Shown: piece after piece, positions 2 through 13,975 of the stretch
Layout: each line of letters starts with the position of its first letter
How positions within the stretch are numbered: the first letter of the stretch is position 1
Assembly: GCA_023957335.1 (NCBI GenBank)
Contig: JAMLHC010000002.1
Span: 179,441 to 243,440, forward strand
Direction of reading: 5' to 3'
Length of the DNA: 64,000 bases
DNA from: Bacteroidota bacterium
GTDB lineage: Bacteria > Bacteroidota > Bacteroidia > NS11-12g > UBA955
Translations under genes and position numbers: made by a program
The notes under the pieces: model-generated
The model's database searches: none
The model's input: the letters and a program-made list of their open reading frames with translations, nothing else
What the model was told of the DNA's origin: nothing

Positions 2-3000
2 GAGTTTTTCTATGATTTGAAACCTGATAATGAAATGATGAAAAAACTCATTATGGCAGGGAATGTTAAGGAAGCAGGTTATCATTTTATTATCAAAGCA
101 GGAAAAGAAGTTGGAGTAGGTGATACCACTTGGATAGAATTAAGGGGTTGGAATACTTGTATGCCTTTGTTTGATTTGGAAGCAAGAGATTTTGTTGGAA
201 TGATGGTGCAGGCTTTGCCTAGCGGATTTGGAAACGGATGTGAGTGTTTGACTTGTCCTCAGGTTCAGGAACATGTTGATTCCCTTTTTAAAGAATATCC
301 TGATTTGCAATATAATCATCCAAATTATGCTAGTGTGTTGACTACATTCTTGAATAAACACTTGAATACAAATCTGAGTTTTGCTGAATACCAAACTTTT
401 ATGGAGGGTTGTGGGATGTTTAGTAGAATTGATTTACGTTCTAGTACTTGTGATTACAGAATTAGTGTTGCTTCTGGGTCGGATTGTGTAGCGCATTTGG
501 ACACTCAGTTACGGCATTTGTATGTTCAAACTTCTGAAGCATTGATGTATAGCAAAACAAAGGTGAGTGCAGACAGTATTGTCTATTGCATTGACTTGAG
601 TATGTTTGATGCTACAGGAAGGTTGTGGGCTGCCGATACATTGGAAATGATTTTAGCAGAAACAGGAAATTGCAGTGGAGCAAATAATCAGGAGGATTTT
701 GTGGGTACTTTTAGTAGGTTGTTAATCTTGACACAAACTGAACCAGCCTGCGATGGTAGAACACTGTCGGAAGTAGTGACTAACCAATCCTATAGTGACA
801 GTATTTCAATAACTTCGTATTATAGTCTAGAATGGCTTAATTATTTGAATGATAAAGATACTGGATATTATTACCAGTGGAATCATGCAGAGTTGAGTTT
901 TGCTAAGAGAGCTGATTTTGCGGATACTCTACAAGTGTGGGCATTGGCTTGTGATGATGTGCAGGAATTAGTGTTTCCTTTCCACAAGAGTGGTTATGCA
1001 GAAGGGTTTGCAGAATATGGAATTTGTAGAATTGTGGAAGAAGATACTTTCTGTAATGACTGTGAAGAGATAAGGCATGAATTAATAAAGTACCAATATG
1101 CTTTAGGAACACCATCGAATGAAAGCCCATTAAGGTATTGGACAAGTAAAGATATACGAAAAGTTTTAAAGGATAGCTTGAATGCTGACTATAGGGTTGT
1201 ATTTGAGAATGATGGTTGTCAAAATTGCCCTGATAAGAAGTTGTTTGTTTGTGAGCAATTGAGCGAGGGTGGAAATGCTTTTGCAACACTTCTAAATAAC
1301 TTATTAGCAGATGGGAATCTTTTTGAAAATCATGACTTGACATCAGATACGGCATTGTTGCGAAAGATGAATTTTACTGGAGCATTTAATAGTCCACAAT
1401 TACTGTTTAGTTCTAATATGTCTATTGATACTATTGGAGAATCTCCTGGGTGGGTTTTTGATACATTAGCTAGTTTATGGAATCTACAAATTAAGTTTAA
1501 CCAAAAAACCACTTTGAAGTTTAGTATTGTACTTGAAGGAGATGGAACTAGTTTTAGTGATATTAAAAGAATATTAAGTCTTAAACCTAAGGCAAATAAC
1601 GGTGAAGTATATAGTTTTGAGCTGGTATTATTAACAGAAAACGATGTTTTAAATGCCATTGGAGAAAGCAATGGTTTGGTGATGAGCAATTGTTGTGAAT
1701 ATAGAGAGTTGTTGTTGTGCCCAAAAACTATGAGCAGAGAAGGTTTGTACCCTGTTGCTAAACCTTGCAAAGCTGATGAAATTGCCAATGCTTGGGAACA
1801 GTCTGGAATTATGTACTTACAATATAAAGATTCCTTGCGCAGAGATTTTAAGAATAAGTATGTGGAACACTGTCTGAACAATGCTAGTGAAAATGCATTG
1901 ATGAAATACCGTGAACAACAGTATCATTATACTCTCTATCATTATGATTTGGCGGGCAACCTTATTAAAACTGTACCTCCAGGGGGTGTTGAATATTTGG
2001 ATATGAATGCATTGAGAACGGATAGTATTGCAGATGCCAGAGATGATTATGATAAGGATTTGCATGTTTTCACTAAACACGGATTGGCAAGTTTGTATGA
2101 GTACAACAGTTTGAACCAACCTGTGTGGCAAGCCACTCCTGATGGGGGTGTAAGTAAGTTTTGGTATGACCGTTTGGGCAGGTTGGTGGTGAGCCAAAAT
2201 GCAAAGCAGAAGCTGTTAGGCGATGTGTATAGCTATACTGTGTATGACAGTCTAGGCAGAATTAGAGAGGTGGGTGAAATAACGGGAGATGCGATAAATG
2301 AAGTGAGTTTGCGAGCGGAAGACGGATATGAGGAGTATTATATGGGGTGGGTTGATGCAGGCTTAAAAACCCAGATTACGCGCACTTGGTATGATGCACC
2401 CATGAGCGAAGATATTGATGATGCGTTTGGAGTGGCAGGACAACAGTATTTGAGAAATAGGGTGAGCAGTACAGCTTATTTTGAATATGCTCCTACAGGT
2501 GAATGGGAAACTGAGTTTACTCGCGCTACTCACTACAGCTATGATATTCATGGAAATGTGCATACATTAATTCAGGATTTGCCAGAGTTGGCAAGTGTGG
2601 GTCATAGGTTTAAGTATGTGAGGTATGACTATGATTTGGTAAGTGGGAATGTGAAGCGAGTGAGGTATCAAGAGAATGCAGGCGATGCTTTTTACCACCG
2701 CTATGAATATGATGCAGACAATCGTCTTGTGTTGACAGAAACGAGTTTGGATGAACGTATTTGGGATAGGGATGCAGAGTATGAGTACTATTTGCATGGA
2801 CCATTAGCGAGGGTGTTGATTGGAGAAAAAATGGTTCAAGGGGTGGATTATGCTTATTCGCTACATGGTTGGTTGAAAGGTGTGAACTCTGTGAGTTTGA
2901 ATGCGAATAGGGATATGGGAAGAGATGGTGTAAGTGGAGGAAGAAGGTATGTTGCACGGGATGCGTTTGGCTTTGCGTTGAACTATTACTATGATGCAAA

Positions 3001-5992
3001 TAGTGAGGCAGACTATGAAGCAATTGCACCAGGTGCGAACTGGAATGGAGGAAGGTTGGAAACACAACTGACAAGCGGAGCTAACCAACTTTTTAATGGA
3101 AACATAAACAGTATGGTTACAAGTGTTACTCCATTTATGGAAGGTGGACCGATGGCAACGGTGTATAGGTACGATCAGTTGAACAGGATTAAGGGGATGA
3201 AAACCTACAGGAATTTTAATCAAAGTACGAATGTGTGGAACAGTGGAGGGACGAGCAATTTCTTTGCTACAAACTATAGTTATGATGCAAATGGAAATAT
3301 ACTTTCTTTGAACAGGAACAGTGGTGATGGAAGCAAACTGGGAATGGATGCGTTGACGTATCATTACAAGGCAGGAACAAATCAGTTGGAGTATGTGGAC
3401 GATGCGGTGACTGCGGGAGAACATGAGAATGATGTGGATGATCAGGAAGAAGATAATTATGTGTATGATGCAATTGGAAACTTGGTGCAAGATGTGGCAG
3501 AAGGGATTGAAGCAATTGAGTGGAATGTGTATGGAAAAGTGCGGAGAATAGTAAGAAGTTCTTCAGCAGTTGACAAACCCGACTTGGAATTTAGGTATGA
3601 CGCGGGAGGTCAACGAGTGGTTAAGATAGTGAAAGATGGAGCCAACGAGATTGACTGGAAGTATCAGTACTATGTGCGAGATGCGCAAGGGAATGTGATG
3701 GCTACTTATGACAAGAAAAGTGTGGTAAGCGGTGATACAAGTGTGTATAGGAAGATTAATGAATGGCTAATAACTAATGAGGGAGGAACTGCATTTGGCG
3801 AGTTTGTGGATGGGGAGTTGAAGGGCGGACAATTTGACGGGGCATTGATTGAAGCTATAGTAGAATGGAGTGAAACGGAGAATGTTCTTAGTGGCTATGA
3901 TGCGTCAGACTTTTGGGGTTGGGATGCAAATATGGCATCTCTTATTATGCAGCAGATTGTTTCGTATGCAAGCCCTCCAACCGAATACGAAGAAGTGTTT
4001 GACCTTGTGTGGAACGGTGGTCTGTTCCTTTCGGTAAACGCTGCCATTGTAAACAGTTGCGGAGTGAGCACTCAGAATATGCTGCAAAACCTGCTTATGT
4101 CTGACATGTTGAACAACCATTTGCTAATGGGCTTATATACCCAAAGCGCAGGTACGTTTATAGCCATGTACAGCTCAATGGGGGGATTGCCTCCTTACAA
4201 CGCTCCGGGAATGATAAACTGGATGTGGATGAACTCCACCAACATAGGGATTGCCACAGAGATACTGAATTTTTACAGCCCAACGCAAATACAAACGGCT
4301 TTGGACGGAATGCCTTATGTGGTGATGAAGGATTTTGCGATAAACAATTTCAGCGATTTTGTGAATACAATAAATCTGTGTATGATTGCTCTTCCGGGTA
4401 ATTTCTGGAGTGGGTTCAGCAACCAGGGCATGCTGCGGGATATTATTATGAATCACAGTGCGGCAGAGTACCTGCTTGCGCTGGCAATGAGCAACGACCC
4501 TGACTTTGTGAAAAATGTGGCGGAGAATTACAGCTACCTTGTGGCGGAGGCGGTGCGCAAGCTGGACGGCATGAGCGTGGACGCCTACCTTGCCTTGGTG
4601 AGAAACCACTACGGAGACGGAGTGCTGGCGGATTTGCTTGCCGCTTTGAGCGAAGACCTTATCTTTACGCAAAAGTTTGTGCTGGATGAGCACCACCTGT
4701 ACGGCAGTAGCCGTTTGGGCGTGAAAACCCACAGGAGGGTGCTGCTGCGCAAGGAGTTTAGTATTAGTGGATTTGAGGAAGATGGCACTTATATTACGGA
4801 TGAGGTGACAGATTCGCTTGTTTATGTGGCTTCGAGTGAATACTTTTGTAGGGTGTTGGCACAAAAGCAATATGAGTTGAGTAATCATTTGGGCAATGTT
4901 CTTGCAACAGTGCTTGACCGTAGAACAGGTGTTTTTGATGAGGGAGCTGATACGCTGATGTATTATGTGGCGGATGTTGTGAGTGCTACTTTGTATTATC
5001 CGTTTGGGCAAGCAATGTTGAGTTATTCTAATATTGAATTTGCTTTTACATACGGGTTTAATGGGAAAGAGAAAGATGAAGAAGGAATGGGCGGTGGTGG
5101 TGCGACATATGATTACGGATTTAGAATTTACAATCCTCAAATTGCACGGTTTTTAAGTGTTGACCCACTCAGTTCCTCATTTCCTTGGTACACTCCTTAC
5201 CAATTTGCTGGAAACATGCCAATAATCGCTATTGATTTAGATGGTTTAGAAGAATTTGTAATTATTAGATGGTGGGAAAACGGAAAGTACAAGGGCACAA
5301 CAGTGACATATTTGCCTAACAAAGGGAGTGTGAGATTTTATAGGAACAATCCTCAATATGTTAACCATACAATGTATTTAGATATGGAATACAGTGAAAG
5401 GCAATATAATTTAATGCATGGCGGAAAAATATTTAAAACAATGAAGGTCGGAGATAAAATTTTGATTAGTGCTCTTTCAGACGAAGCGAGATCTATAATA
5501 TACAATACAGATAATAACCAGACAAAACCCAAAGAAGGTTCAATATTGACCCCAACACCTGTTAATGAAAAAGAGAGAATTAAAGCAAATCAACAAAAAG
5601 CTGCATTTAGCCCTGAGAATAATAGGTGGGGTGGAAGCGAGATAACTCCAAAAGTCACTAATTTACATTATAATACTGACAATAGTGACCCACTTGTTCT
5701 ATCGCAGAGTGTTATTGACGGGTTTGCTGCTGCGCTTCTAATTAATCCAGATTATGTAATTAGAATTACTGGGCATACAGACAATGTTGGCACTGATCAA
5801 TATAATAGAGATCTAGGATTAAGAAGAGCAGAAGAAACTAGAGATTATTTAATATCAAAAGGAATATCCCCTGATAGAATTGTAGTTGAAACACAGGGTG
5901 AGTCAAATCCTATAAGTTCAAATGAGACTAGTGAAGGCAGAGCTCAAAACAGAAGAGTAGAAATTAGTATAGAACCCCAAAGATTAAATTAA
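2..5992 (+). CDS. Rhs/YD-repeat family polymorphic toxin, 5' end outside the window; Rhs core ends at DLDGL (5234-5248); the C-terminal tip carries an OmpA-like peptidoglycan-binding domain
   Basis: The frame is open from nt 2; the listed first codon at 17 is TTG and there is no upstream stop. Many YD repeats are present (YHYDLAGNLI, YEYNSLNQPV, WYDRLGRLV, YSYDIHGNV, YDYDLVSGNV, YEYDADNRLV, YRYDQLNRI, YSYDANGNIL, YVYDAIGNLV, FRYDAGGQRV). The Rhs-associated core tail reads YDYGFRIYNPQIARFLSVDPL..PWYTPYQFAGNMPIIAIDLDGLEE. It is followed by ITGHTDNVGTDQYNRDLGLRRAEETRDYL...NRRVEISI, an OmpA C-terminal type motif. Confidence 0.9.
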   Translation, partial: EFFYDLKPDNEMMKKLIMAGNVKEAGYHFIIKAGKEVGVGDTTWIELRGWNTCMPLFDLEARDFVGMMVQALPSGFGNGCECLTCPQVQEHVDSLFKEYPDLQYNHPNYASVLTTFLNKHLNTNLSFAEYQTFMEGCGMFSRIDLRSSTCDYRISVASGSDCVAHLDTQLRHLYVQTSEALMYSKTKVSADSIVYCIDLSMFDATGRLWAADTLEMILAETGNCSGANNQEDFVGTFSRLLILTQTEPACDGRTLSEVVTNQSYSDSISITSYYSLEWLNYLNDKDTGYYYQWNHAELSFAKRADFADTLQVWALACDDVQELVFPFHKSGYAEGFAEYGICRIVEEDTFCNDCEEIRHELIKYQYALGTPSNESPLRYWTSKDIRKVLKDSLNADYRVVFENDGCQNCPDKKLFVCEQLSEGGNAFATLLNNLLADGNLFENHDLTSDTALLRKMNFTGAFNSPQLLFSSNMSIDTIGESPGWVFDTLASLWNLQIKFNQKTTLKFSIVLEGDGTSFSDIKRILSLKPKANNGEVYSFELVLLTENDVLNAIGESNGLVMSNCCEYRELLLCPKTMSREGLYPVAKPCKADEIANAWEQSGIMYLQYKDSLRRDFKNKYVEHCLNNASENALMKYREQQYHYTLYHYDLAGNLIKTVPPGGVEYLDMNALRTDSIADARDDYDKDLHVFTKHGLASLYEYNSLNQPVWQATPDGGVSKFWYDRLGRLVVSQNAKQKLLGDVYSYTVYDSLGRIREVGEITGDAINEVSLRAEDGYEEYYMGWVDAGLKTQITRTWYDAPMSEDIDDAFGVAGQQYLRNRVSSTAYFEYAPTGEWETEFTRATHYSYDIHGNVHTLIQDLPELASVGHRFKYVRYDYDLVSGNVKRVRYQENAGDAFYHRYEYDADNRLVLTETSLDERIWDRDAEYEYYLHGPLARVLIGEKMVQGVDYAYSLHGWLKGVNSVSLNANRDMGRDGVSGGRRYVARDAFGFALNYYYDANSEADYEAIAPGANWNGGRLETQLTSGANQLFNGNINSMVTSVTPFMEGGPMATVYRYDQLNRIKGMKTYRNFNQSTNVWNSGGTSNFFATNYSYDANGNILSLNRNSGDGSKLGMDALTYHYKAGTNQLEYVDDAVTAGEHENDVDDQEEDNYVYDAIGNLVQDVAEGIEAIEWNVYGKVRRIVRSSSAVDKPDLEFRYDAGGQRVVKIVKDGANEIDWKYQYYVRDAQGNVMATYDKKSVVSGDTSVYRKINEWLITNEGGTAFGEFVDGELKGGQFDGALIEAIVEWSETENVLSGYDASDFWGWDANMASLIMQQIVSYASPPTEYEEVFDLVWNGGLFLSVNAAIVNSCGVSTQNMLQNLLMSDMLNNHLLMGLYTQSAGTFIAMYSSMGGLPPYNAPGMINWMWMNSTNIGIATEILNFYSPTQIQTALDGMPYVVMKDFAINNFSDFVNTINLCMIALPGNFWSGFSNQGMLRDIIMNHSAAEYLLALAMSNDPDFVKNVAENYSYLVAEAVRKLDGMSVDAYLALVRNHYGDGVLADLLAALSEDLIFTQKFVLDEHHLYGSSRLGVKTHRRVLLRKEFSISGFEEDGTYITDEVTDSLVYVASSEYFCRVLAQKQYELSNHLGNVLATVLDRRTGVFDEGADTLMYYVADVVSATLYYPFGQAMLSYSNIEFAFTYGFNGKEKDEEGMGGGGATYDYGFRIYNPQIARFLSVDPLSSSFPWYTPYQFAGNMPIIAIDLDGLEEFVIIRWWENGKYKGTTVTYLPNKGSVRFYRNNPQYVNHTMYLDMEYSERQYNLMHGGKIFKTMKVGDKILISALSDEARSIIYNTDNNQTKPKEGSILTPTPVNEKERIKANQQKAAFSPENNRWGGSEITPKVTNLHYNTDNSDPLVLSQSVIDGFAAALLINPDYVIRITGHTDNVGTDQYNRDLGLRRAEETRDYLISKGISPDRIVVETQGESNPISSNETSEGRAQNRRVEISIEPQRLN

Positions 5993-5993
5993 T

Positions 5994-6758
5994 ATGAAAA
6001 TAATACTTGTTTTAACTTCAATTTTTATTTCGTTTTTATTGGGATTTTCATTTCGAAATCACCACTTTAATAAATTAAGCGCTTCTAATTCTGCCAAAAT
6101 GCAAATTTCCAACGTTGATACAAGCAGGTTTGAAAACGTTTTAGAAATGTATGAAGATATATTCTCTGAAAACTTAAGGATAACTGATATCTATATTGAT
6201 AGTTTATTTTGTTACCCAAACATGAGAGACAGTGAAGACATAACATCAGACCCATATATGACTTTAGAAGACTACTTCTATAATAACTGTATCATTGCAT
6301 TAAAAATGGTTAATATTGACAATACTAAAGATATTTTTAGTATTAATAAAAACGGATTCTGTACATTGATAATTGAAAAGAATAAAGAAAAACTAAGGAA
6401 AATAACATATTTAAATAGTGGAATTGAAACAATCGTTAATATAGGAGAATTGGATGAAATAAGTGTGCATAACACTATAAATGGGGATACTGTTGGAAAT
6501 GCCCTATGGATTGATAAAAACTCAAAGCTTACTCGATTATATCAAAACAATTTAGATTCTTTCAGTATAAACTATGTTAAGGTAAATACAACATTTGATA
6601 CAGTGAAAAACAATAGCCCTTTTGTTGAAGTAAATACAACCACAATTGTAACAAATCCTATAAAATATGGCTTTGACTACTTTTTCGATAATAATAATAA
6701 TACTGTTAGAAAAAGAACTCATTTTAATGGCGATTCTATTTCTACTATTCAGAGGTGA
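5994..6758 (+). CDS. putative cognate immunity/partner protein of the resident Rhs tip (imm1), signal-anchored
   Basis: The ATG lies 2 nt after the rhs stop. The N-terminus is hydrophobic (MKIILVLTSIFISFLLGF). The ORF is very AT-rich and shows no enzymatic motif. Function is assigned by position only. Confidence 0.55.
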   Translation: MKIILVLTSIFISFLLGFSFRNHHFNKLSASNSAKMQISNVDTSRFENVLEMYEDIFSENLRITDIYIDSLFCYPNMRDSEDITSDPYMTLEDYFYNNCIIALKMVNIDNTKDIFSINKNGFCTLIIEKNKEKLRKITYLNSGIETIVNIGELDEISVHNTINGDTVGNALWIDKNSKLTRLYQNNLDSFSINYVKVNTTFDTVKNNSPFVEVNTTTIVTNPIKYGFDYFFDNNNNTVRKRTHFNGDSISTIQR

Positions 6759-6766
6759 AGGGGGTA

Positions 6767-6794
6767 GGTAGTGTTGTAGATGTGTTGATTTTAC
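6767..6794 (+). repeat. G/T-rich cassette-junction motif, type 1 (GGTAGTGTTGTAGATGTGTTGATTTTAC)
   Basis: 26 of 28 nt are identical to 8701-8728. It shares the 14-nt core GGTAGTGTTGTAGA with 6805-6818 and with the reverse complement of 12158-12171. Confidence 0.8.
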
Positions 6795-6801
6795 ATTTTA
6801 A

Positions 6802-6821
6802 CAAGGTAGTGTTGTAGATTT
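6802..6821 (+). repeat. G/T-rich cassette-junction motif, type 2 (CAAGGTAGTGTTGTAGATTT); left arm of a perfect 20-bp inverted repeat
   Basis: Its exact reverse complement, AAATCTACAACACTACCTTG, is at 12155-12174. Confidence 0.85.
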
Positions 6822-6892
6822 GGTGTTTTGAGAAAAACCAGAACTTAACCTACTAAAAACCAAAGAAAAGTATCTTTCAGCAATAACAAAAA

Positions 6893-6918
6893 AGCGGATA
6901 TAAAGTCCGCTCATTTTT
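6893..6918 (+). terminator. Rho-independent terminator after imm1
   Basis: The stem is AGCGGA / TCCGCT with loop TATAAAG, followed by CATTTTT. Confidence 0.6.
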
Positions 6919-6946
6919 CTAATAAAATCATTTAAGAAAAACTTTT

Positions 6947-7012
6947 TATCTTCGCTCTACCAAACATGAGAAATTACCATCAAAATACCGCCAGTTTTTA
7001 CAACCCGTTTGG
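6947..7012 (+). repeat. conserved class-A orphan leader plus first codons (TATCTTCG..ATG..SFYNPFG); inverted partner at 11923-11988
   Basis: Hand alignment against the reverse complement of 11923-11988 gives 55 of 66 identical positions. It contains TATCTTCG, one mismatch from the Bacteroidota -7 box TAnnTTTG, 11 nt upstream of the ATG. Confidence 0.75.
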
Positions 7013-8036
7013 TAGTAGTATGATGGGGTATTCTAATGAGGAATTTGCTTACTCCTATGACTTTAATGGTAAAGAGACAGACGATGAAACAGGATTGCAG
7101 GATTATGGAATGCGTATTTATAATAAAGCTTATGGTAAGTTTTTGAGCGTTGACCCTTTGACATCATCGTATCCTTGGTACACACCTTATCAGTTTGCAG
7201 GAAATAAACCGATTAGATATATTGATTTGGATGGTTTAGAGGAATATGATGTTATAATTTGGCTGGGAGCTGACGGAGTATATAGAACAAGAATGCACTT
7301 AATTAATGAAGAAGGGCCTTTGAAAGTAAATTATTATGCAAGAAAATTAGCACACACAGAACCAATGGACGGTCTTCCTGGGAAACCACCTTGTCCTGAT
7401 TGCGCACCGCAAAAGAAGCAATCTACAGATGAACTTATAGTCTCAAAAACTGTAGGTGAAAATGGTGTCACTGAGAATAATATTTGGGCGACTGATAAAA
7501 TGAAAAATCATACAGAAGGGGCTAATAGCGCAGCTAATCAATCTATTAACAATGGAGTAGTATTTTCAGACCCGGGTTTTAATGGAACAATAGTTACATC
7601 AATTCAAGTTAGACGCACTCTAAATACAATAGAAACACCAATTATTAAAAGATCTACTTGGGAAGAAAAAGGAGGTGGTACCTTTAGAAATGCAACAGAT
7701 AGTGAGATTAATAGTTTCTTTAATAATAATACACTTATGGATAAAGCTTTGAAAAAGGTTAATACTTACAAGAATCCCACAGTATATGTTGCAACAGAAG
7801 AACACTTGGTCGCACTTAAAAAACGAAATGATGAACTCGGATTAAATATCAAAATTGAAGTAAATCCTGCAAAGTTAACCCCGTCATTTACTAATGTAAC
7901 AAGTTATTATTTTGCTTTCGAATATGAAGAGGGAACTACAACTAGTACTACCACCACCACTACAACTACCACCACCACGGCTACAGTAACAGAAGAAGGA
8001 GTAACAAATAACACACCAACAACTAGAACAAGATGA
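6966..8036 (+). CDS. orphan Rhs C-terminal toxin cassette, class A (A1): short Rhs core tail plus unknown toxin domain with a poly-Thr tail
   Basis: The ORF opens MRNYHQNTASFYNPFGSSMMGYSNEEFAYSYDFNGKETDDE..YGMRIYNKAYGKFLSVDPLTSSYPWYTPYQFAGNKPIRYIDLDGLEE. This parallels residues of the resident Rhs core tail. About 260 aa with no motif I recognise follow, ending in TTTSTTTTTTTTTTTAT. Confidence 0.75.
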   Translation: MRNYHQNTASFYNPFGSSMMGYSNEEFAYSYDFNGKETDDETGLQDYGMRIYNKAYGKFLSVDPLTSSYPWYTPYQFAGNKPIRYIDLDGLEEYDVIIWLGADGVYRTRMHLINEEGPLKVNYYARKLAHTEPMDGLPGKPPCPDCAPQKKQSTDELIVSKTVGENGVTENNIWATDKMKNHTEGANSAANQSINNGVVFSDPGFNGTIVTSIQVRRTLNTIETPIIKRSTWEEKGGGTFRNATDSEINSFFNNNTLMDKALKKVNTYKNPTVYVATEEHLVALKKRNDELGLNIKIEVNPAKLTPSFTNVTSYYFAFEYEEGTTTSTTTTTTTTTTTATVTEEGVTNNTPTTRTR

Positions 8037-8713
8037 AAATGAAACTTATTATATTGTTTGGACTTGCGATTTGCAATTTAAACTGTCAAGGTTCTTTAGT
8101 ACAATCTATTTCAAAAGATACTAATAAAGAAGATAAATTAATATTTTACCATGCTGATTGGGCTGAGTTTGTCTTAATAATTGTGAAAAAATCACCTGTT
8201 TTAGACACTGAAATTCCTTTATCATGCAGAAATGGCAAAAGCAATAAAAGGCTCATAAATGAAGACAAAGGAGATACTACTTTTTTTTATGTATCTGAAC
8301 ATAAATTATCCTTTAAAGAAAGGGATATTCTTTTTAAAGATAGCTTGATTCAATTTAAGGGATATAGATTTGTTGATTTAAAAGAAATTGACACAGGTAT
8401 TATATCAGATAAACACAGGATGAGTGTTACCTGTTTTGAATGTATATTAGACACAATCTATGACTCTACATTTAAACTCAATTTTCAAGGCAACCACTAT
8501 GAAACTTATTTTTTAGAAAATATAGAATGTATATTTAAATCAAATGAAAGGTTTTTTATGTCAAGTTATCCAATTCAAAATTATTATCAAATACCTCTTT
8601 CAATTGGTTACTTACTTAATGTTGGATTATTCACAGGTTTGGTTTCTGTATCTGATGAAGAAGGGTTTTTTATAGATTGGAGCGAGTTGTCATGGAATTT
8701 GGTAGTGTTGTAG
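8033..8713 (+). CDS. putative immunity lipoprotein for A1 (imm2)
   Basis: ATGA start/stop overlap with A1. The signal peptide has a Cys (MKMKLIILFGLAICNLNCQG). Function is assigned by position only. Confidence 0.55.
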   Translation: MKMKLIILFGLAICNLNCQGSLVQSISKDTNKEDKLIFYHADWAEFVLIIVKKSPVLDTEIPLSCRNGKSNKRLINEDKGDTTFFYVSEHKLSFKERDILFKDSLIQFKGYRFVDLKEIDTGIISDKHRMSVTCFECILDTIYDSTFKLNFQGNHYETYFLENIECIFKSNERFFMSSYPIQNYYQIPLSIGYLLNVGLFTGLVSVSDEEGFFIDWSELSWNLVVL

Positions 8714-8728
8714 AGTTGTTGATTTTAC
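8701..8728 (+). repeat. G/T-rich cassette-junction motif, type 1 (GGTAGTGTTGTAGAGTTGTTGATTTTAC)
   Basis: 26 of 28 nt match 6767-6794. It contains the imm2 stop codon (TAG 8711-8713). It ends 5 nt before the stop of the first minus-strand gene. Confidence 0.8.
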
Positions 8729-8733
8729 CTTAC

Positions 8734-9291
8734 TCACCATTTATGAAAATAAGAATCAATTTGTTTTTTTGTTTTTATTATTCTCATCCCATTTATTCCT
8801 CCATAAAAACGAATATTTGGAATGCTGTCTAACTTTCCTCTTTTAAAATAATAGTAATCATTTGGAACAGTATCTTTATATTTACTTTCTATCCGCATTT
8901 TAGAATTTACTGAATCCTTGCTCATTTCAAATACATTGTCGTTATATATAAGACAAACATAAATCCATTCAGATGCAGTTTGATGAGTTTGAATAAAACA
9001 AAAAGTATCATTATTCTTTAATAAAACAGTATCTAAATCGGAAGTTTCTAAAGCATGATTTAAGACTTTGCTAAACTTACTAATTTCGTTTTTTTCTTGT
9101 TTTCTATTACTAAAAAAGTATCTTAGTCCTTTCCTTTTGGGTGAGATAGAACGAATATGCTTTTTGAAAATATTAATTGAAACATCTAATATGTCCCCTT
9201 CTTTTTTTTTCTCATTAATTTGTGAAGATGTAAGAGAAAAAAAACTTAAAGTCAATATTGTAATTAAGTAAAAAAAAAGTTTTTTAATCAT
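8734..9291 (-). CDS. putative immunity protein for B1 (imm3), secreted
   Basis: The longest ORF runs to 9345. The ATG at 9291 gives a typical signal peptide (MIKKLFFYLITILTLSFFSLTSSQ) and overlaps the B1 stop by only 8 nt. Confidence 0.5.
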   Translation of the reverse strand: MIKKLFFYLITILTLSFFSLTSSQINEKKKEGDILDVSINIFKKHIRSISPKRKGLRYFFSNRKQEKNEISKFSKVLNHALETSDLDTVLLKNNDTFCFIQTHQTASEWIYVCLIYNDNVFEMSKDSVNSKMRIESKYKDTVPNDYYYFKRGKLDSIPNIRFYGGINGMRIIKTKKQIDSYFHKW

Positions 9292-10357
9292 ATTTAAAAG
9301 GTGATTGAGAATGATAATTAACCCAAATAAATTCTTGAAATTCACTACCCATAGGAGAGTAATCTAGTAATCCATTATATCCAGGATTAACAATTTGAAT
9401 TAATGTGGTTGTATGTACATCAAAAGTAGAATAGCTACCTGTTGAAGTTTTTTGAACTAATTGACCTTTATAATTTCCTAGCTTATCTTTATCTAAACTA
9501 TAATGGGTTCTTAATGGGTAACCATGCTCCAGTCTAATTTGATTTTCAACATGAACTGCAAATACTTCTGAATATGGTATGGTCTCACTATTATATCCTT
9601 CTGTGGAATACCATATTTTATCTGGGTTAAGTCCGAAAACATTTTGTGATTTATTGTAATGATAATCCCAAGCATGCCCGAGTTCATGTCCTAGTACTAA
9701 AAAAGGATCCATTGGTGTATTTACAAAATCATCTCCTTTTGCTACAGGTACATTAACTACCACATTAGGATTCCACCCGACTGTTTTAGCATCTACATTA
9801 TAGTAATTTCTTCTTCCATTTTTACTCTGTCTCGTTATTAGTAATGAACTTTCCATTGAGTGTAAATCATCAATCATCATTTTACCTATTGGGCCAGTAT
9901 ATAACCTATTTAATGCCTGTACAGTTTCGCAAATTACATTATCATTTCCATCATAATCTATTCCTGGGGTATATATGTATGTTCCTGTCTTACTACTTGC
10001 ATCAGGAATTTTTATTGTATCACCCGCCACATCGCTAAACCAAATTGGATTATTCGCAAAGGCAGCATAAACAGAAATACTTGGATTAGGTTTTGGGTCA
10101 ACATTCCACCTCCTACCCAACCTAGCATCATACTGCCAATACTCCGCACTATAAGAATTTCCTTTCCCATAAATCTCATCATCTTTCTCTTGGGTATTCA
10201 TACCGTACGAGTAAGCAAATTCAGAGTTAGAATACCCCATCATACTCATACCGAACGGGTAATACATTACAGCCTCCCCCAACCCCTCCAAAGGAGGGGA
10301 GTATTTCCCCCTTTTGGGGGGATTAAGGGGGGCAGTTATTTGACCGCTTTTTTGCAT
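9284..10357 (-). CDS. orphan Rhs-tip toxin cassette, class B (B1): HExxH zinc-metallopeptidase-like toxin
   Basis: Rhs homology begins at VMYYPFGMSMMGYSNSEFAYSYG (in-frame ATG at 10267). The class-B core terminus is YDARLGRRWNVDPKPNPSISVYAAFANNPIWFSDVAGDT. The toxin part has LVLGHELGHAWDY (HELGH, 9674-9688). The first ~30 codons of the listed ORF run through a GC-rich hairpin element and are probably not coding. Confidence 0.7.
   Translation of the reverse strand: MQKSGQITAPLNPPKRGKYSPPLEGLGEAVMYYPFGMSMMGYSNSEFAYSYGMNTQEKDDEIYGKGNSYSAEYWQYDARLGRRWNVDPKPNPSISVYAAFANNPIWFSDVAGDTIKIPDASSKTGTYIYTPGIDYDGNDNVICETVQALNRLYTGPIGKMMIDDLHSMESSLLITRQSKNGRRNYYNVDAKTVGWNPNVVVNVPVAKGDDFVNTPMDPFLVLGHELGHAWDYHYNKSQNVFGLNPDKIWYSTEGYNSETIPYSEVFAVHVENQIRLEHGYPLRTHYSLDKDKLGNYKGQLVQKTSTGSYSTFDVHTTTLIQIVNPGYNGLLDYSPMGSEFQEFIWVNYHSQSPFKYD
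10273..10333. repeat. GC-rich nested-hairpin element (REP/MITE-like) immediately 5' of cassette B1
   Basis: Hairpin 1 is CCCCTCC-AAA-GGAGGGG (10283-10299). Hairpin 2 is CCCCC-TTTT-GGGGG (10307-10320). They are flanked by CCCCC (10276-10280) and GGGGG (10327-10331). The surrounding DNA is AT-rich. Confidence 0.6.
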
Positions 10358-10483
10358 GGTGTTTTCAATGTCAAAAGTAGGGATTTTTTGCCTTGCTTAT
10401 CATAGTAATCTCTTAATCACAAAAAATCACAGTTTAGACACTTCCACAAAACCCCCAATCTGATACATTACCTACATTACCCA

Positions 10484-10975
10484 TTACCATATTTTATGTA
10501 CATTCCTCCAATACAATATCATTGAATCATTATTATTGAATTTAAAGTATGCATTTTTATTACTTACATGTATGTTATACCACACATTTTTCTCGAATCC
10601 AAAACTCAAAGTGTCAGTAATAATATGCTTTCGTGTATCCGTCCACTTGTAATTAGAATTAGTCTTGAAGAAATGTATATATTTTTTCGCTTTATGATTT
10701 TCAGATTTCAGACTAGCAAAACACAATTTTACTATATCATATTTAGCAGGAACTCCTTGAAAACAAAAAGAATCAACACTAAGTTCACAAACTGTAACCC
10801 CTTCTAATTTGCAGTTGCTTTTAATATATTCTCTTGTTATTTCAAATGAGCAACTTTTTGCAAAATAGCCCATGTAAATAAGATAGCATGAACTAAGAGA
10901 GCAACACAAGAAAATTAAAATTATCTTATCTGGTCGCACTATCCTTAGCAACTTTAAGTATTTTTTGTTCTGCAT
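10484..10975 (-). CDS. putative immunity lipoprotein for A2 (imm4)
   Basis: The ORF is open to 11014. Plausible starts are the ATG at 10975 (MQNKKYLKLL..) or the GTG at 10939 (V-RPDKIILIFLCCSLSSC, lipobox-like). It overlaps the end of A2. Confidence 0.5.
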   Translation of the reverse strand: MQNKKYLKLLRIVRPDKIILIFLCCSLSSCYLIYMGYFAKSCSFEITREYIKSNCKLEGVTVCELSVDSFCFQGVPAKYDIVKLCFASLKSENHKAKKYIHFFKTNSNYKWTDTRKHIITDTLSFGFEKNVWYNIHVSNKNAYFKFNNNDSMILYWRNVHKIW

Positions 10976-11969
10976 TTCGTTTAAATTCATATCCTTTTCC
11001 TTTATAACTATCAATTGTTACTCTTGGGTCTAGCATATCCTTAGGATTGTTCTTATCTAATCCTAGTTTTTCCATTTCACTGATTTTCCATTCTTTGTAT
11101 CTTACTAACATGCCGAAAAACATGCTTGCAGTATACGCAGAATTAACAGCTTCGTCACTTGCAGGTCTTCCTGTTATATTATCAATTCCTCTTTTATGTC
11201 TTTGTTCTGTAACTCTATTATAGTAAGCATCCCAGCCTTCTATTGCTGCTTTATCACCCGGTAAAGTCCTTACATCTTCTAACCAACAAAAAGTTCCAAG
11301 GTCTTCTTGGTCGCGGTCGTGTGTGTATGCGATAGCATCAACTTCATCAATTGGGTTTATAGACCAGTCATAGCTGTTATAGGCTTGTACATCTTTATGA
11401 GGTCCAAAAATTGTTTTTGCCCCCTCGCCTTGAAAGAACCCATGTCTTCCTATAGCACTTATACTAAGTCCTCCTCCTTGAGCTATCTCCATTTCCTCAA
11501 CTTCATCATATATTTCACCATTTGCATTTTCAAATTGATAGATATATTTTACTCCCCTACCTTCGGGTCCAAAACTTTCCGAATACTTTTCATAATTAAA
11601 TCCTTCGATATCTCTGTAATCACACACGTCTATTATTACTGGAGCATTCCCATCAATTATTTTCACAGTATATGTAATATATTCTGCACCTTCCAAGTCG
11701 ATTCCGTCAATAGGTCTATTTCCTGCATATTGATAAGGTGTCCACCAAGGGAACTTGCCAGCTTTAGGGTCACGTGACTTGAATCTAATAATTCTAGGGT
11801 CATAATCCCTATATTCAAAAGCATAAGAATTTCCATCTCCTGCTATTTCGCTATCCATATATTGTCCACCGAACCCATAAGCATAGCTAAACTCCGCGTT
11901 GCTGTAAGCTTGCAGGGTGCTTCCGAACGGGTTGTAAAAACTGGTAGTATTTTGGCGTTGTTTTCTCAT
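10926..11969 (-). CDS. orphan Rhs C-terminal toxin cassette, class A (A2): Rhs core tail plus unknown toxin domain
   Basis: The ORF opens MRKQRQNTTSFYNPFGSTLQAYSNAEFSYAYGFGG..YRDYDPRIIRFKSRDPKAGKFPWWTPYQYAGNRPIDGIDLEGAE. About 250 aa follow, containing NPIDEVDAIAYTHDRDQ. Confidence 0.75.
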   Translation of the reverse strand: MRKQRQNTTSFYNPFGSTLQAYSNAEFSYAYGFGGQYMDSEIAGDGNSYAFEYRDYDPRIIRFKSRDPKAGKFPWWTPYQYAGNRPIDGIDLEGAEYITYTVKIIDGNAPVIIDVCDYRDIEGFNYEKYSESFGPEGRGVKYIYQFENANGEIYDEVEEMEIAQGGGLSISAIGRHGFFQGEGAKTIFGPHKDVQAYNSYDWSINPIDEVDAIAYTHDRDQEDLGTFCWLEDVRTLPGDKAAIEGWDAYYNRVTEQRHKRGIDNITGRPASDEAVNSAYTASMFFGMLVRYKEWKISEMEKLGLDKNNPKDMLDPRVTIDSYKGKGYEFKRNAEQKILKVAKDSATR

Positions 11970-11988
11970 GTTTTGTAAGGCGAAGATA
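11923..11988 (-). repeat. conserved class-A orphan leader plus first codons; inverted partner of 6947-7012
   Basis: 55 of 66 positions are identical to 6947-7012 after reverse complementing. It includes TATCTTCG, the ATG, and the block TTTTTACAACCCGTT. Confidence 0.75.
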
Positions 11989-12098
11989 TGGATTTATTTA
12001 GAAAGGCTCAATACAAGTTATTTCGGATGTTTTTTCTAAGAAAATGAGGGAGGTCGCAGGGGTTGTTATTCAAACCCTGATTTTTTGACACCAAGCAC

Positions 12099-12124
12099 AA
12101 AAAAAGCCCCGAACTGGCAGGGCT
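12099..12124 (-). terminator. Rho-independent terminator after imm5 (minus strand)
   Basis: On the minus strand the stem is AGCCC / GGGCT with a 10-nt loop, followed by a run of six T. On the plus strand it is followed by TAAAAA, so it is strand-specific. Confidence 0.55.
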
Positions 12125-12154
12125 TAAAAATATATTGATGTGTAATCTTTCCTA

Positions 12155-12174
12155 AAATCTACAACACTACCTTG
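12155..12174 (-). repeat. G/T-rich cassette-junction motif, type 2; right arm of the perfect 20-bp inverted repeat
   Basis: AAATCTACAACACTACCTTG is the exact reverse complement of 6802-6821. It spans the imm5 stop codon (12167-12169). Confidence 0.85.
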
Positions 12175-12997
12175 AAATTATCTGACATGCTTTGAATTCT
12201 ACAACATCAATTAAATGATAGTTAATATCCTTATTGTCAATGCCATAGTATTTTTTCTTATCATCGAAATATGAACTATCATAATTTATAAATTTCAGAA
12301 CATAAATACTGTCTTTAAAATAAATCAATATGGTGTTATTTTTAACGACTTCTGCTTTTAAGTATGATACCCATTGAGCATAATTTTTTGTATATACTAC
12401 ATCGTGATAGTTTTCTTCAATTACGTACTCACATGTAGCATTAAGATATTCATCTAAATAATATTCAAGAGTTGAAATTGAATCAATTAACTTTATTTCA
12501 CTGTAATTACGCATAACTTCGTTATGTCCTCGCATATATGAAAATAAGATGTCCTTTGATAACTTAATACTTTCGTTTGTAGGCAAATTCAGGTAATTTA
12601 TAATTTTCTCAATTTCTCTTGTTGCAAAAGAAAAACGAATGTTTTCAGAGCCACCAAATAAAGTAATATCAAAGTCGTTTTTGTAATACAATTCAGATAT
12701 ATCAGAGTCGAAATACAACATATTTGCTGAAAATATTGAAATATAATTCCAATTACTGTCCAATGCAATAAACAGGTTCGCAAAATAGCTATGACGAACA
12801 GTATCTGACATTTCAATAATTTTTAATTTGTCGTTGAACATGATAAGTGTGTCTGTCGGTGTAAATCTACTGACATACAAGCTGCAATAATCAGGTACTA
12901 CAATTTTTGATTCTTCTGAGACATGTTTAACCTTTTCGACACATGAAACCATGTTGAAACCAAGCACATAAATCAGTACGCAAATTTGAGTTTTCAT
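12167..12997 (-). CDS. putative immunity lipoprotein for B2 (imm5)
   Basis: It starts 12 nt after the B2 stop. The signal peptide has a Cys (MKTQICVLIYVLGFNMVSC). Function is assigned by position only. Confidence 0.55.
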   Translation of the reverse strand: MKTQICVLIYVLGFNMVSCVEKVKHVSEESKIVVPDYCSLYVSRFTPTDTLIMFNDKLKIIEMSDTVRHSYFANLFIALDSNWNYISIFSANMLYFDSDISELYYKNDFDITLFGGSENIRFSFATREIEKIINYLNLPTNESIKLSKDILFSYMRGHNEVMRNYSEIKLIDSISTLEYYLDEYLNATCEYVIEENYHDVVYTKNYAQWVSYLKAEVVKNNTILIYFKDSIYVLKFINYDSSYFDDKKKYYGIDNKDINYHLIDVVEFKACQIISR

Positions 12998-13009
12998 GAA
13001 GTTAAATTA

Positions 13010-13975
13010 TCAGTTCTGGTGCTTATAAATATTGATTGGTTCTGTTTTATACCTAAGTAAGTAAGCACTAAAATAATATTGATGAAAACCAATAAATAAA
13101 TACTTGTCCTTAATGTCCTTATATTTTGGGTCTTTACTTTTTCGCAAATCTGCATAAGACTTTGGCAATCCCTTTTCATAAGAACTTAAAAACCTTTCAG
13201 AACCTGATAACATTAAATTTTGTCCAACTTTAGACTCAACGGTATGGTCATCTCTATTTATTAACAGGCATTTATTATCAAGACCCCAATTGAACTTAAT
13301 TGCTTTTAGATAGCCATGCCCCGTTTCATGAACTATCGAATTAGACATGACAAGCGTTGAATTGTTTTTCATTGCTTCTGTAAATTCACTATAATAAATA
13401 ACACTTCTATTACTGAAATTCACGCCCCTCACTCCATGAGAATAAAAACTTTCAAAAGAAATATAGTGGTCTGTTTCGTTGAGTTTGATTTGGTCAAATG
13501 TCAAAGTTGTTTCTTCTACTACAACATTAAGATTATTATCCCTGTACATCAGCTCTAAATCCTTAAATAGTCGGTTTTTATAAGCATCAAAATTTTTATT
13601 CATCTGCTCTTCTGTCCAACCTTTATCTTTGTTTGCTTCCGAATATCCCTTTTTCAGTTCTATAGTATTTACAAAAACAGTTGTATCCCCCGCCACATCA
13701 GTAAACCAAATCGGATTATTCCCAAAACAAGCATAAACACTAACACTTGGATTTGGTTTTGGGTCGTTGTTCCAACGCCTTCCCAGTCTGCTGTCATACA
13801 TCCAGTATTCCGCACTGTATGCACCTTCAAAGATTTCATCATCTTTGAGTTGTCCGTTTTGTCCGAAGGAATATGAGAACTCCGCGTTGCTATAACTCAT
13901 CATAGAGCTTCCGAACGGATAATAAAGAAATCCGCTTTGAGCCTTAGGTAGATATGATGTTAGAGGATGCATCAA
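13010..13975 (-). CDS. orphan Rhs-tip toxin cassette, class B (B2): HExxH zinc-metallopeptidase-like toxin
   Basis: The Rhs homology reads GFLYYPFGSSMMSYSNAEFSYSFGQNG..YDSRLGRRWNNDPKPNPSVSVYACFGNNPIWFTDVAGDT. The toxin part has SIVHETGHGYL (HETGH, 13316-13330). The listed start is a TTG inside the 3' end of the integrase gene, so a genuine independent start is doubtful. Confidence 0.7.
   Translation of the reverse strand: MMHPLTSYLPKAQSGFLYYPFGSSMMSYSNAEFSYSFGQNGQLKDDEIFEGAYSAEYWMYDSRLGRRWNNDPKPNPSVSVYACFGNNPIWFTDVAGDTTVFVNTIELKKGYSEANKDKGWTEEQMNKNFDAYKNRLFKDLELMYRDNNLNVVVEETTLTFDQIKLNETDHYISFESFYSHGVRGVNFSNRSVIYYSEFTEAMKNNSTLVMSNSIVHETGHGYLKAIKFNWGLDNKCLLINRDDHTVESKVGQNLMLSGSERFLSSYEKGLPKSYADLRKSKDPKYKDIKDKYLFIGFHQYYFSAYLLRYKTEPINIYKHQN

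Follow-up and report, generated by a model that had tools for sequence, protein, structure and literature searches.

Organization of the locus

The window analyzed here, meaning the whole 64,000-nt stretch of DNA, contains a resident rhs gene, four orphan Rhs cassettes (A1, B1, A2, and B2), and a tyrosine recombinase gene (Table 1). The whole resident Rhs protein is 3705 amino acids long in L094, and the part proposed to be exchangeable comprises the plug and the C-terminal domain, ending in an OmpA-like domain. A1 and B1 form a single segment (7013-10250) with inverted sites at its two ends. Three cassettes (B2, A2, and B1) are inverted relative to rhs and run in the same direction as the adjacent recombinase gene. 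The orphans have intact reading frames, immunity genes, and sites, and the G+C content of the cassettes is 28-38%, below that of the flanks.

Table 1. Features of the rhs locus, with positions given in the window.
Feature	Position	Strand	Remarks
Resident rhs gene	17-5992	+	5' end beyond window; constant shell-coding part to 4993
Site S_res, TATTATCCGTTTGG (codons YYPFG)	4994-5007	+	Proposed recombination site, expressed gene
Presumed immunity gene of resident C-terminal domain	5994-6758	+	Without family match
Spacer closing resident segment	6759-6998	+	Two GGTAGTGTTGTAGA elements, terminator-like hairpin 6893-6911, leader A (ATG at 6966)
Site S_A1, TACAACCCGTTTGG	6999-7012	+	
A1 module: autoprotease plug and toxin domain with poly-Thr tail	7013-8036	+	
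A1 presumed immunity gene	8033-8713	+	
B1 presumed immunity gene	8734-9291	-	185 aa per public assembly calls
B1 module: plug and Peptidase_M91-like toxin domain	9284-10250	-	
Site S_B1, TATTACCCGTTCGG	10251-10264	-	
Spacer with G+C-rich palindromic element	10265-10483	-	Left flank of S_B1
A2 presumed immunity gene	10484-11014	-	
A2 module: plug and toxin domain	10926-11922	-	
Site S_A2, TACAACCCGTTCGG	11923-11936	-	
Spacer closing B2 segment	11937-12166	-	GGTAGTGTTGTAGA 12158-12171, terminator-like hairpin 12125-12104, second leader A copy
B2 presumed immunity gene	12167-12997	-	
B2 module: plug and toxin domain	13010-13910	-	
Site S_B2, TATTATCCGTTCGG	13911-13924	-	19 nt past recombinase stop codon
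Tyrosine recombinase, 366 aa	13944-15044	-	Pfam Phage_integrase match

The flanks of the cassettes had been described in an initial annotation of this DNA. B1 indeed follows a GC-rich hairpin, the palindromic element of Table 1, and the sequence ahead of B2 is the 3' end of the recombinase gene, with 19 nt between its stop codon and the box. The conserved leader reported for A1 and A2 is present (∼75 nt at 83% identity, inverted repeat I2), but it is more aptly regarded as the terminal (3') part of the segment before it. The resident and B2 spacers both run from GGTAGTGTTGTAGA through a terminator-like hairpin into leader A. Spacer families recur behind different cassettes, which a pure site-to-site exchange model does not account for. 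Two simpler rules for the spacers were rejected: that GGTAGTGTTGTAGA is a general 3' cassette boundary (it is restricted to the resident, A1, and B2 segments and their copies), and that a spacer always moves with its upstream cassette (in L001, the hairpin spacer lies behind a different cassette).

A fixed boundary and a 14-nt common core

In all four orphans, Rhs homology starts at one codon, equivalent to nt 4994 of the resident gene. This is the single truncation point, the YYPFG box of the Rhs core, that the initial annotation had proposed, and the five aligned translations match those it gave. The box also marks the start of a curated domain model, as position 1 of TIGR03696 (NCBIfam Rhs_assc_core) aligns to the first Y in 5/5 copies. 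The resident (48.1 bits), A1 (56.7 bits), and A2 (44.6 bits) score over the curated cut-off of 32.5 bits, while B1 (20.6 bits) and B2 (28.8 bits) score under it, both aligning over positions 1-75. The B1 and B2 cores are a divergent core subclass.

Aligning the five boxes, a check suggested at the outset, defines a common nucleotide core, the 14-nt TAYWAYCCGTTYGG, with two copies on the plus strand and three on the minus strand. Five matches are found in 64 kb, compared to 0.18 expected, and 0/100 shuffles gave five. The DNA alignment of the five copies breaks down upstream of the box. The longest exact match between any cores is 20 nt; between the resident core and the orphans, the longest exact matches are 7-13 nt, with an identity of 74-78%, which makes RecA-type homologous exchange implausible. 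The sequence picked out by eye as common to the resident gene and B2, TATTATCCGTT, is their longest exact match (11 nt). The 14-mer codes for a conserved protein motif, and its conservation is partly at the protein level.

The recombinase

The recombinase scores 30.3 bits against Pfam PF00589 (cut-off, 27.1) and 22 bits against the XerA/integron-integrase model (cut-off, 220). Residues R178, K205, H289, R292, H315, and Y325 (R-K-H-R-H-Y) are invariant across 22 homologues. A profile of the family gave no match among PDB sequences, and a genome-contig scan with the single recombinase protein returned nothing, an alignment of homologues being needed as the query. The initial annotation used this gene merely as the left flank of B2. 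The recombinase gene is the key to the system, and its product is the probable catalyst of exchange.

Recombinant junctions among strains

Ten public contigs code for a 100% identical recombinase. These contigs are constant through ...CTTTATTATCCGTT and then split into at least seven different cassettes; 6/10 stop within 56 nt of the recombinase stop codon. Among near-identical strains, A1 is found behind five left flanks (leader A, two diverged leader variants, the recombinase flank, and the Rhs flank) and B1 behind three (the hairpin leader, the recombinase flank, and the Rhs flank), and in runs X1 and X2, A2 lies behind a left flank of Rhs type. Viewed from the other side, the Rhs flank is joined across samples to the resident, B1, A1, and A2 modules, and the recombinase flank is joined in public assemblies to B1, A1, and B2. 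Chimeric junctions at the box, which the initial annotation had suggested looking for, are present in public assemblies, with both Rhs and recombinase flanks.

The position of these junctions is narrowly defined. Cassette-specific sequence begins at box position 13-15 throughout, and the junctions are confined to ∼9 bp of the box, with none spread along the core. At box position 6, the recombinase-B1 junction has T in run X9 and C in X5, X6, X7, and X15, and position 12 varies independently of the cassette (L006 versus L007). Such variation would be expected of a heteroduplex overlap region at positions 6-12. On this reading, exchange is confined to ∼7-9 bp around YCCGTTY, and positions 6-12 likely represent the strand-exchange overlap.

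Some of the junctions require inversion (recombinase-A1 in L004, Rhs-B1, and Rhs-type-A2), and others are of the same-orientation deletion/insertion type (10259 to 13920, 10250 to 13911, and 4997 to 7003). Both the number and the identity of cassettes differ between strains. Runs X5 and X6/X7 combine Rhs-resident, Rhs-B1, and recombinase-B1 junctions in low-depth, probably metagenomic material; on the Rhs-B1 contig from this material, the Rhs side is just 33 nt. The junction data consist of assembled contigs from mixed or low-depth samples. The 7-13 nt exact matches are shorter than the word length of the Logan assembler, which we take to be 31 letters, so contigs spanning the box should reflect real molecules. 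Recombinase flank joined to the resident C-terminal domain, the reciprocal junction, was not seen in the public assemblies and runs examined, and a scan of metagenome contigs with a 29-nt Rhs-side flank gave no match. The Limnovirga soli runs (L058), considered as isolate data, turned out to represent a low-depth related strain without the joints, and a search for sequencing runs of Xanthocytophaga flavus found none.

Conservation across Bacteroidota

We compared 79 loci from other Bacteroidota species with a homologous recombinase (41-54% identical), of which 13 are uninformative because of contig ends. In 56/66 informative loci, no more than 450 nt separate an Rhs-core box from one end of the recombinase gene, the box being at the 3' end and co-directional in 26, and at the 5' end and divergent in 30. 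The other 10 of the 79 loci have room on both sides and no box by the recombinase. Rhs-core boxes and this recombinase family go together across Bacteroidota.

The larger cassette sample that the initial annotation had called for upholds the fixed boundary. Among the 95 orphan cores at these 79 loci, the match to the core model starts no later than position 4 in 81, and the remaining cores share the start at the box, with divergence or an insertion beyond it; L050, L064, L082, and others were examined as boundary exceptions and dismissed on these grounds, as they share the same truncation point. The open frame upstream of the box has a median length of 12 codons. In 25 loci, a full-length rhs gene lies at the array's far end and bears the same site, and relative to this gene 28 orphans are inverted and 5 are direct. 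Nucleotide homology to the same-locus full-length rhs gene starts from -7 to +5 nt from the box in 27/32 comparisons. The sample shows neither random truncation points nor cassettes explained as simple deletion products of paralogues, the two outcomes named beforehand as refuting. Many other species have inverted repeats of 75-185 nt that are nearly identical. Every locus represents another species, and the same cassette was not found in different positions across species. A protein search with the 82-aa core, intended for a histogram of truncation points, was discarded as fragment-biased, having returned only proteins of 144 aa or less.

Proposed mechanism and alternative explanations

We now have good reason to think that the adjacent tyrosine recombinase runs a multi-site rearrangement system and that the YYPFG box is where it recombines DNA. 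The initial annotation offered two readings, a defined exchange site near 4994-5008 and a modular cassette starting there, and the evidence supports both. The best reading is a shufflon-like, partly integron-like, site-specific exchange of the plug/toxin/immunity module. The five sites would delimit four segments (the resident C-terminal domain with its immunity gene, A1 and B1 back to back, A2, and B2), with the constant shell-coding part of rhs outside at one end and the recombinase gene outside at the other. Recombination between sites in opposite orientation would invert the intervening DNA and fuse another module in frame to the Rhs shell, each module consisting of the last ∼85 core residues (the autoprotease plug), a toxin domain, and the downstream cognate immunity gene. 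Recombination between sites in the same orientation would delete segments and the reverse reaction would insert them, such that strains would come to differ in cassette number. Inversion would take place within a clone, and the silent immunity genes are presumably expressed.

It is tempting to attribute this function to the family as a whole, and we lean toward doing so. A widespread Bacteroidota tyrosine recombinase family, dedicated to Rhs toxins, may use the ∼14-bp YYPFG-codon site to flip and capture plug-toxin-immunity modules, so that one line could cycle reversibly through toxins while keeping all antidotes, a programmed toxin shufflon/integron hybrid.

Other explanations can be weighed against the same observations. 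The recombinase could mainly insert and excise cassettes at the box, stockpiling immunity genes in an integron-like or rAID-like capture array, with the convergent rhs gene secondary and no programmed inversion. The tandem co-directional cassettes directly downstream of the recombinase, as in rAID-1, are in keeping with this, as are the strain differences in cassette number and identity, the three deletion/insertion-type junctions given above, the low G+C content of the cassettes relative to the flanks, and the known occurrence of polyimmunity loci beside XerC/D-type recombinases. We nonetheless regard the capture array as unlikely, given the preponderance of inverted orphans (28 to 5), the 25 loci with this site in a full-length gene at the array's far end, the junctions that require inversion, and the retention of a toxin and autoprotease plug besides the immunity gene. 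Capture and the multi-site rearrangement that we favor are compatible and not mutually exclusive.

The case for classical RecA-dependent C-terminal displacement via the core, with the common boundary resulting from selection for a complete plug domain, is considerably poorer, and we think it very improbable. This process activates orphan Rhs toxins in Salmonella, and several other species have long, nearly identical repeats, where RecA-dependent inversion could contribute. However, exact matches between resident and orphans in the window are at most 13 nt, at 74-78% identity, the junctions fall within ∼9 bp without spreading along the core, the left flanks are unrelated sequences rather than truncated core, and a dedicated recombinase is linked to the box in 56/66 informative loci. 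Finally, the boxes might represent nothing but a conserved domain start, with the orphans as decaying remnants without ongoing exchange. The boundary does coincide with the start of the curated model, and protein-level conservation of the motif is evident, but we give such a coincidence or annotation artifact almost no credence: identical cassettes lie behind different flanks in near-identical strains, so that the junction data already contradict it, the orphan frames, immunity genes, and sites are intact, and the architecture is kept across a phylum.

Implications

Diversification of Rhs and other polymorphic toxins is thought to occur by occasional homologous recombination with orphan cassettes, a view that a dedicated site-specific recombinase would alter. 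If multi-site rearrangement holds, toxin switching would be reversible and possibly regulated, populations would be heterogeneous in the toxin deployed, and many other Bacteroidota could swap the toxin-plus-antidote module on one large Rhs delivery gene. This would bear on kin discrimination, immunity stockpiling, and the origin of rAID-like arrays, and it would account for metagenome assemblies breaking right beside this recombinase gene. A short defined site and a compact recombinase could also serve as a tool for multi-state DNA switches, and the site, at the start of the autoprotease plug, would be a natural fusion point for Rhs payload exchange.

Relationship to known systems

We found no literature linking Rhs toxins to a shufflon, an inverton, or a dedicated recombinase, with subscription journals incompletely covered; in a systematic inversion survey, the words "Rhs" and "toxin" are absent from the main text (PMC9881135). 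The locus resembles the orphan rhs-CT/rhsI modules of Enterobacteria in having silent core-end/toxin/immunity modules beside a full-length rhs gene, able to replace its C terminus. In Salmonella LT2, the orphan shares 522 bp at 95% identity in direct orientation, and displacement occurs by homologous recombination after duplication, with the intervening DNA lost (PMC3967940). In contrast, the orphans here are mostly inverted and have a 14-nt common core, a fixed boundary, and a dedicated recombinase; in place of the long near-identity and direct orientation of classical displacement, matches are 7-13 nt and 3/4 orphans are inverted.

Like rAID-1, the locus has a Bacteroidota tyrosine recombinase followed by a co-directional low-G+C array (a comparison of layout), with genes tied to polymorphic toxins, repeats between units, and strain-variable content. 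rAID-1 is defined by a recombinase at least 44% identical to BF9343_RS08045, and its arrays are said to consist of immunity genes alone, with repeats between the genes and no partner rhs gene. A tyrosine recombinase with at least two co-directional low-G+C genes is found here (B2, A2, B1, and their immunity genes), whereas an array of orphan immunity genes with conserved intergenic motifs is not: plug and toxin are retained in the units, the repeat lies within genes rather than between them, and opposite the array stands a full-length rhs gene with the same site. Integrons differ in their IntI-type integrase (here 22 versus 220 bits) and attC hairpin sites, as the sites here are not hairpins. 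The hsdS shufflons of Type I restriction-modification systems and the Bacteroides SusC/SusD inversions share a site-specific recombinase, inverted repeats inside coding sequence, and silent partial gene copies that yield alternative alleles, but act on another target family.

There are also parallels of layout with the R64-type shufflon, in which the tyrosine recombinase Rci acts at asymmetric sfx sites to switch the PilV C terminus. Both have a tyrosine recombinase gene beside a cluster of segments, segments parted by short repeats in both orientations (five sites here), and a constant N-terminal coding part with alternative C-terminal segments, one of which holds two convergent alternatives (here A1/B1). 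As sfx sites are described, both also have one conserved and one unconserved side of the site. Unlike the R64 shufflon, the target here is a polymorphic toxin, each segment has an immunity gene of its own, the site is embedded in a conserved protein motif, and same-orientation deletion/insertion products are seen, where Rci is said to give inversions only.

Fixed start of the toxin cassettes

Five copies of the YYPFG-encoding box, a 14-nt core, lie in the locus: one in the full-length (resident) rhs gene and one in each of four orphan plug-toxin modules (A1, A2, B1 and B2). The five translations aligned in the initial annotation are correct, and in all five the first Y of the box is position 1 of the NCBIfam model TIGR03696 (RHS repeat-associated core domain), the alignment starting at nt 4994 in the resident copy. 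In the nucleotide alignment, the copies are homologous only on the right side of the box. The common core, TAYWAYCCGTTYGG, has five matches in 64 kb versus 0.18 expected, a count not attained in any of 100 shuffles. The left flanks are also as first described, with a ∼75-nt leader common to A1 and A2, a G+C-rich palindromic element at B1, and the 3' end of the recombinase gene at B2. The five sites split the locus into four segments (see the table), of which the A1/B1 segment is kept as one unit in further contigs of near-identical strains (L090-L094). It is likewise kept in a 3142-nt contig of public sequencing runs X1 and X2, which starts at exactly 7013.

Genes, segments and sequence elements of the rhs locus
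Feature	Position	Strand	Remark
Resident rhs gene, large	17-5992	+	5' end beyond window
OmpA-like domain	5500-5992	+	end of resident C terminus
Small gene 3' of resident rhs	5994-6758	+	
A1 orphan module	6966-8036	+	
A1 threonine run	7935-7990	+	
A1 partner small gene	8033-8713	+	
B1 partner small gene	8734-9291	-	
B1 orphan module	9284-10357	-	
B1 core	10000-10264	-	
A2 partner small gene	10484-11014	-	
A2 orphan module	10926-11969	-	
B2 partner small gene	12167-12997	-	
B2 orphan module	13010-13975	-	
B2 core	13660-13924	-	
Tyrosine recombinase	13944-15044	-	366 aa
Segment 1	5008-7012		resident C-terminal domain, immunity gene, spacer
Segment 2	7013-10250		A1 and B1 back to back; inverted sites at both ends
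Segment 3	10251-11922		A2
Segment 4	11923-13910		B2
14-nt element GGTAGTGTTGTAGA	6767-6780, 6805-6818, 8701-8714	+	
14-nt element GGTAGTGTTGTAGA	12158-12171	-	
Leader A	6947-6998	+	
Leader A	11937-11988	-	
Leader A motif in other contigs	L090, 1580-1640; L091, 1340-1400		
Hairpins preceding leader A	6893-6911; 12125-12104		terminator-like
G+C-rich palindromic element, CCCCTCCTTTGGAGGGG with flanking G and C runs	10265-10350	-	left flank of B1 site
Terminator-like score in this element	10308-10332	+	

Module contents and flanking elements

In sequence comparison with solved structures, the box region aligns with the last ∼90 residues of the conserved part of the TcC/Rhs proteins TccC3, YenC2, and RHS2, the alignment beginning 6 to 7 residues ahead of the box. 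In those structures, this region is the C-terminal aspartyl autoprotease “plug,” which seals the Rhs shell and sets the toxin free. Every cassette therefore comprises the whole plug and a toxin domain, followed downstream by a presumed immunity gene. The B1 toxin domain matches Peptidase_M91. At its C terminus the resident protein has, instead of a recognized toxin fold, an OmpA-like peptidoglycan-binding domain (Pfam E = 5e-19), and no family matches the stretch between this domain and the plug (∼5250-5700). The B1 and B2 cores, which score below the TIGR03696 cutoff, are a divergent plug subclass that shares its array with the A-class cores; they carry ...(S/T)DVAGDT in place of the usual ...DLDGL cleavage motif. 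An imperfect 12-nt tandem repeat encodes the run of threonines (TTTSTTTTTTTTTTTATV) at the end of the A1 toxin protein.

Spacer families recur behind different cassettes. A 14-nt element, GGTAGTGTTGTAGA, has four matches versus 0.14 expected, which either overlap the stop codons of the immunity genes of the resident, A1, and B2 or come immediately after them. We rejected it as a general 3' boundary, as neither the other cassettes nor other species have it. In leader A, a TAnnTTCG motif lies 12 to 20 nt ahead of a conserved ATG, itself 11 codons before the box. The motif resembles the Bacteroidetes -7 promoter element, TAnnTTTG, and the leader could supply A1, A2, and their immunity genes with their own expression. 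A terminator-like hairpin precedes each leader A copy. The G+C-rich palindromic element occurs once in the window and precedes a different cassette in L001, one of ten public contigs that encode a recombinase with every residue identical.

Exchanged junctions among near-identical strains

These ten contigs have the same sequence past the recombinase stop codon through ...CTTTATTATCCGTT, immediately beyond which they part into seven or more different cassettes. In six, the assembly breaks and the contig stops within 56 nt of that stop codon. Many metagenome-assembled genome (MAG) contigs among 79 loci from other species stop 100 to 300 nt from the homologous recombinase gene. Such loci are probably underrepresented in short-read MAGs because assemblies break at the box.

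The initial annotation had suggested either exchange at a defined site near the resident box or a modular cassette unit starting there, with chimeric junctions to be looked for in sequencing reads. Public contigs hold such junctions, with Rhs flank-B1, Rhs flank-A1, and Rhs-type flank-A2 joints at the box. In all, five left flanks precede A1. In the window and L094 it follows leader A, and in L090 and L091 two diverged leader variants. L004 has it behind the recombinase flank (97% identity across 130 nt starting at the flank junction, with A1-specific sequence from the GG of the box onward), and run X8 has it behind the Rhs flank (4997 joined to 7003). B1 has three, namely the hairpin leader, the recombinase flank (10259 joined to 13920 in runs X5, X6, X7, and X15; 10250 to 13911 in X9), and the Rhs flank (4998 joined to 10259 on opposite strands, in X1, X5, X6, and X7). 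A2 follows an Rhs-type flank in X1 and X2. Three of these junctions require inversion, i.e., recombinase-A1 (a flip of the A1/B1 segment), Rhs-B1, and Rhs-type-A2, and two are products of same-orientation sites by deletion or insertion, i.e., recombinase-B1 (without the A2 and B2 segments) and Rhs-A1. No reciprocal recombinase-resident junction was seen in the public contigs and runs examined.

All junctions keep flank-specific sequence up to box position 5 and cassette-specific sequence from positions 13 to 15, while positions 6 to 12 (YCCGTTY) agree now with the flank, now with the cassette. The recombinase-B1 junction occurs with both T and C at position 6, and position 12 is the sole difference between contigs L006 and L007. 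We infer that exchange is limited to ∼7 to 9 bp. The pattern at positions 6 to 12 would be the expected trace of a tyrosine-recombinase heteroduplex, which would place the overlap region in the box.

The resident core matches the orphans exactly over no more than 7 to 13 nt, and no two cores match over more than 20 nt, lengths far below what efficient RecA-dependent exchange needs. The Logan assembler works with 31-letter words, so that assembly chimeras should not account for contigs spanning the box. Runs X5 and X6/X7, which are low-depth and probably metagenomic, hold Rhs-resident, Rhs-B1, and recombinase-B1 junctions together, the Rhs side of the Rhs-B1 contig being only 33 nt. This would fit a mixed population of isomers.

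The same design across Bacteroidota

The recombinase has more than 1,200 homologs. Using an alignment of 22 of them, we retrieved the 79 loci, from distinct Bacteroidota species with recombinases of 41 to 54% identity, including Chitinophagaceae, Ferruginibacter, Cytophagales, Flavobacteriales, Limnovirga soli, and Xanthocytophaga flavus. A profile of the five window cores, searched in six frames against 90 sequences (the window, the ten same-species contigs, and the 79 loci), gave 133 matches in 67 sequences. The linkage of box and recombinase is phylum-wide: the box lies within 450 nt of the recombinase 3' end, codirectional, in 26 of the 79 loci and within 450 nt of its 5' end, divergent, in 30. 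Another 13 are uninformative, as the contig ends there, and 10 have no box despite room on both sides. In both designs, the recombinase lies immediately beyond the last site, and 25 loci where the fetched stretch reaches the far end have a full-length rhs gene with the same site there. Of the orphans in these loci, 28 run opposite to that gene (inverted) and 5 run with it (direct).

Copies within a locus have common, locus-specific DNA that extends 20 to 185 nt into the cassette. In 27 of the 32 comparisons made, its start lies between -7 and +5 nt of the box, and the other five values are due to alignment effects. L050 and similar loci were considered as boundary exceptions and rejected, as an insertion follows the box and the start is still at the box. 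Over 90 boxes the consensus is (GAT)TAYTATCCGTTYGG(G)ATG, and orphan conservation drops out left of about -3. Random truncation points, looked for in this larger sample, are not the case. The start is fixed at the box across loci, and thus the truncation point is general and tied to the recombinase family. In a Chitinophagaceae MAG (L044, 10001-18500), two recombinase copies ∼7.3 kb apart each have a box 95 nt downstream, and both boxes share one left flank (YDNPSKDL.EKDYY..G), which points to duplication of the whole recombinase-cassette unit.

A model for module switching

We propose that the tyrosine recombinase would recombine the box sites, and would do so within a clone. Between sites in opposite orientation, the outcome would be an inversion that brings a different plug-toxin-immunity module into frame downstream of the constant Rhs shell and leaves the previous module parked and silent; between sites in the same orientation, a segment would be lost or, in reverse, gained. 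Because inversion destroys nothing, switching would be reversible and every immunity gene would be retained in the genome, with the silent ones presumably expressed.

Could other processes produce this arrangement? Chance or decay is excluded, as it is contradicted by the junction data. Classical homologous displacement does operate on orphans in Salmonella, over 522 bp at 95% identity in direct orientation (PMC3967940). However, with matches to the resident of at most 13 nt and junctions limited to the box, it is not credible here, though it may add to inversion in species with long identical repeats. A purely integron-like or rAID-like capture array would account for the tandem arrays and for gains and losses, but it leaves unexplained both the strong inversion bias relative to the partner rhs gene and the junctions that need inversion. 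We regard capture as something the system would do alongside site-specific inversion, not instead of it.

Comparison with known systems

In the full-text literature searched, of which coverage is incomplete, we found no link of Rhs toxins to shufflons, invertons, or a dedicated recombinase, and a systematic survey of gene-altering inversions has neither “Rhs” nor “toxin” in its main text (PMC9881135). The R64 shufflon works similarly; here the target is a polymorphic toxin. The rAID-1 clusters of Bacteroidales are likewise recombinase-headed arrays, and there is a resemblance to the polyimmunity loci beside XerC/D recombinases (Zhang et al.). In contrast to all three, the site here is internal to the rhs coding sequence and falls on a domain boundary; the units consist of plug, toxin, and immunity gene; and the array faces a full-length rhs gene.
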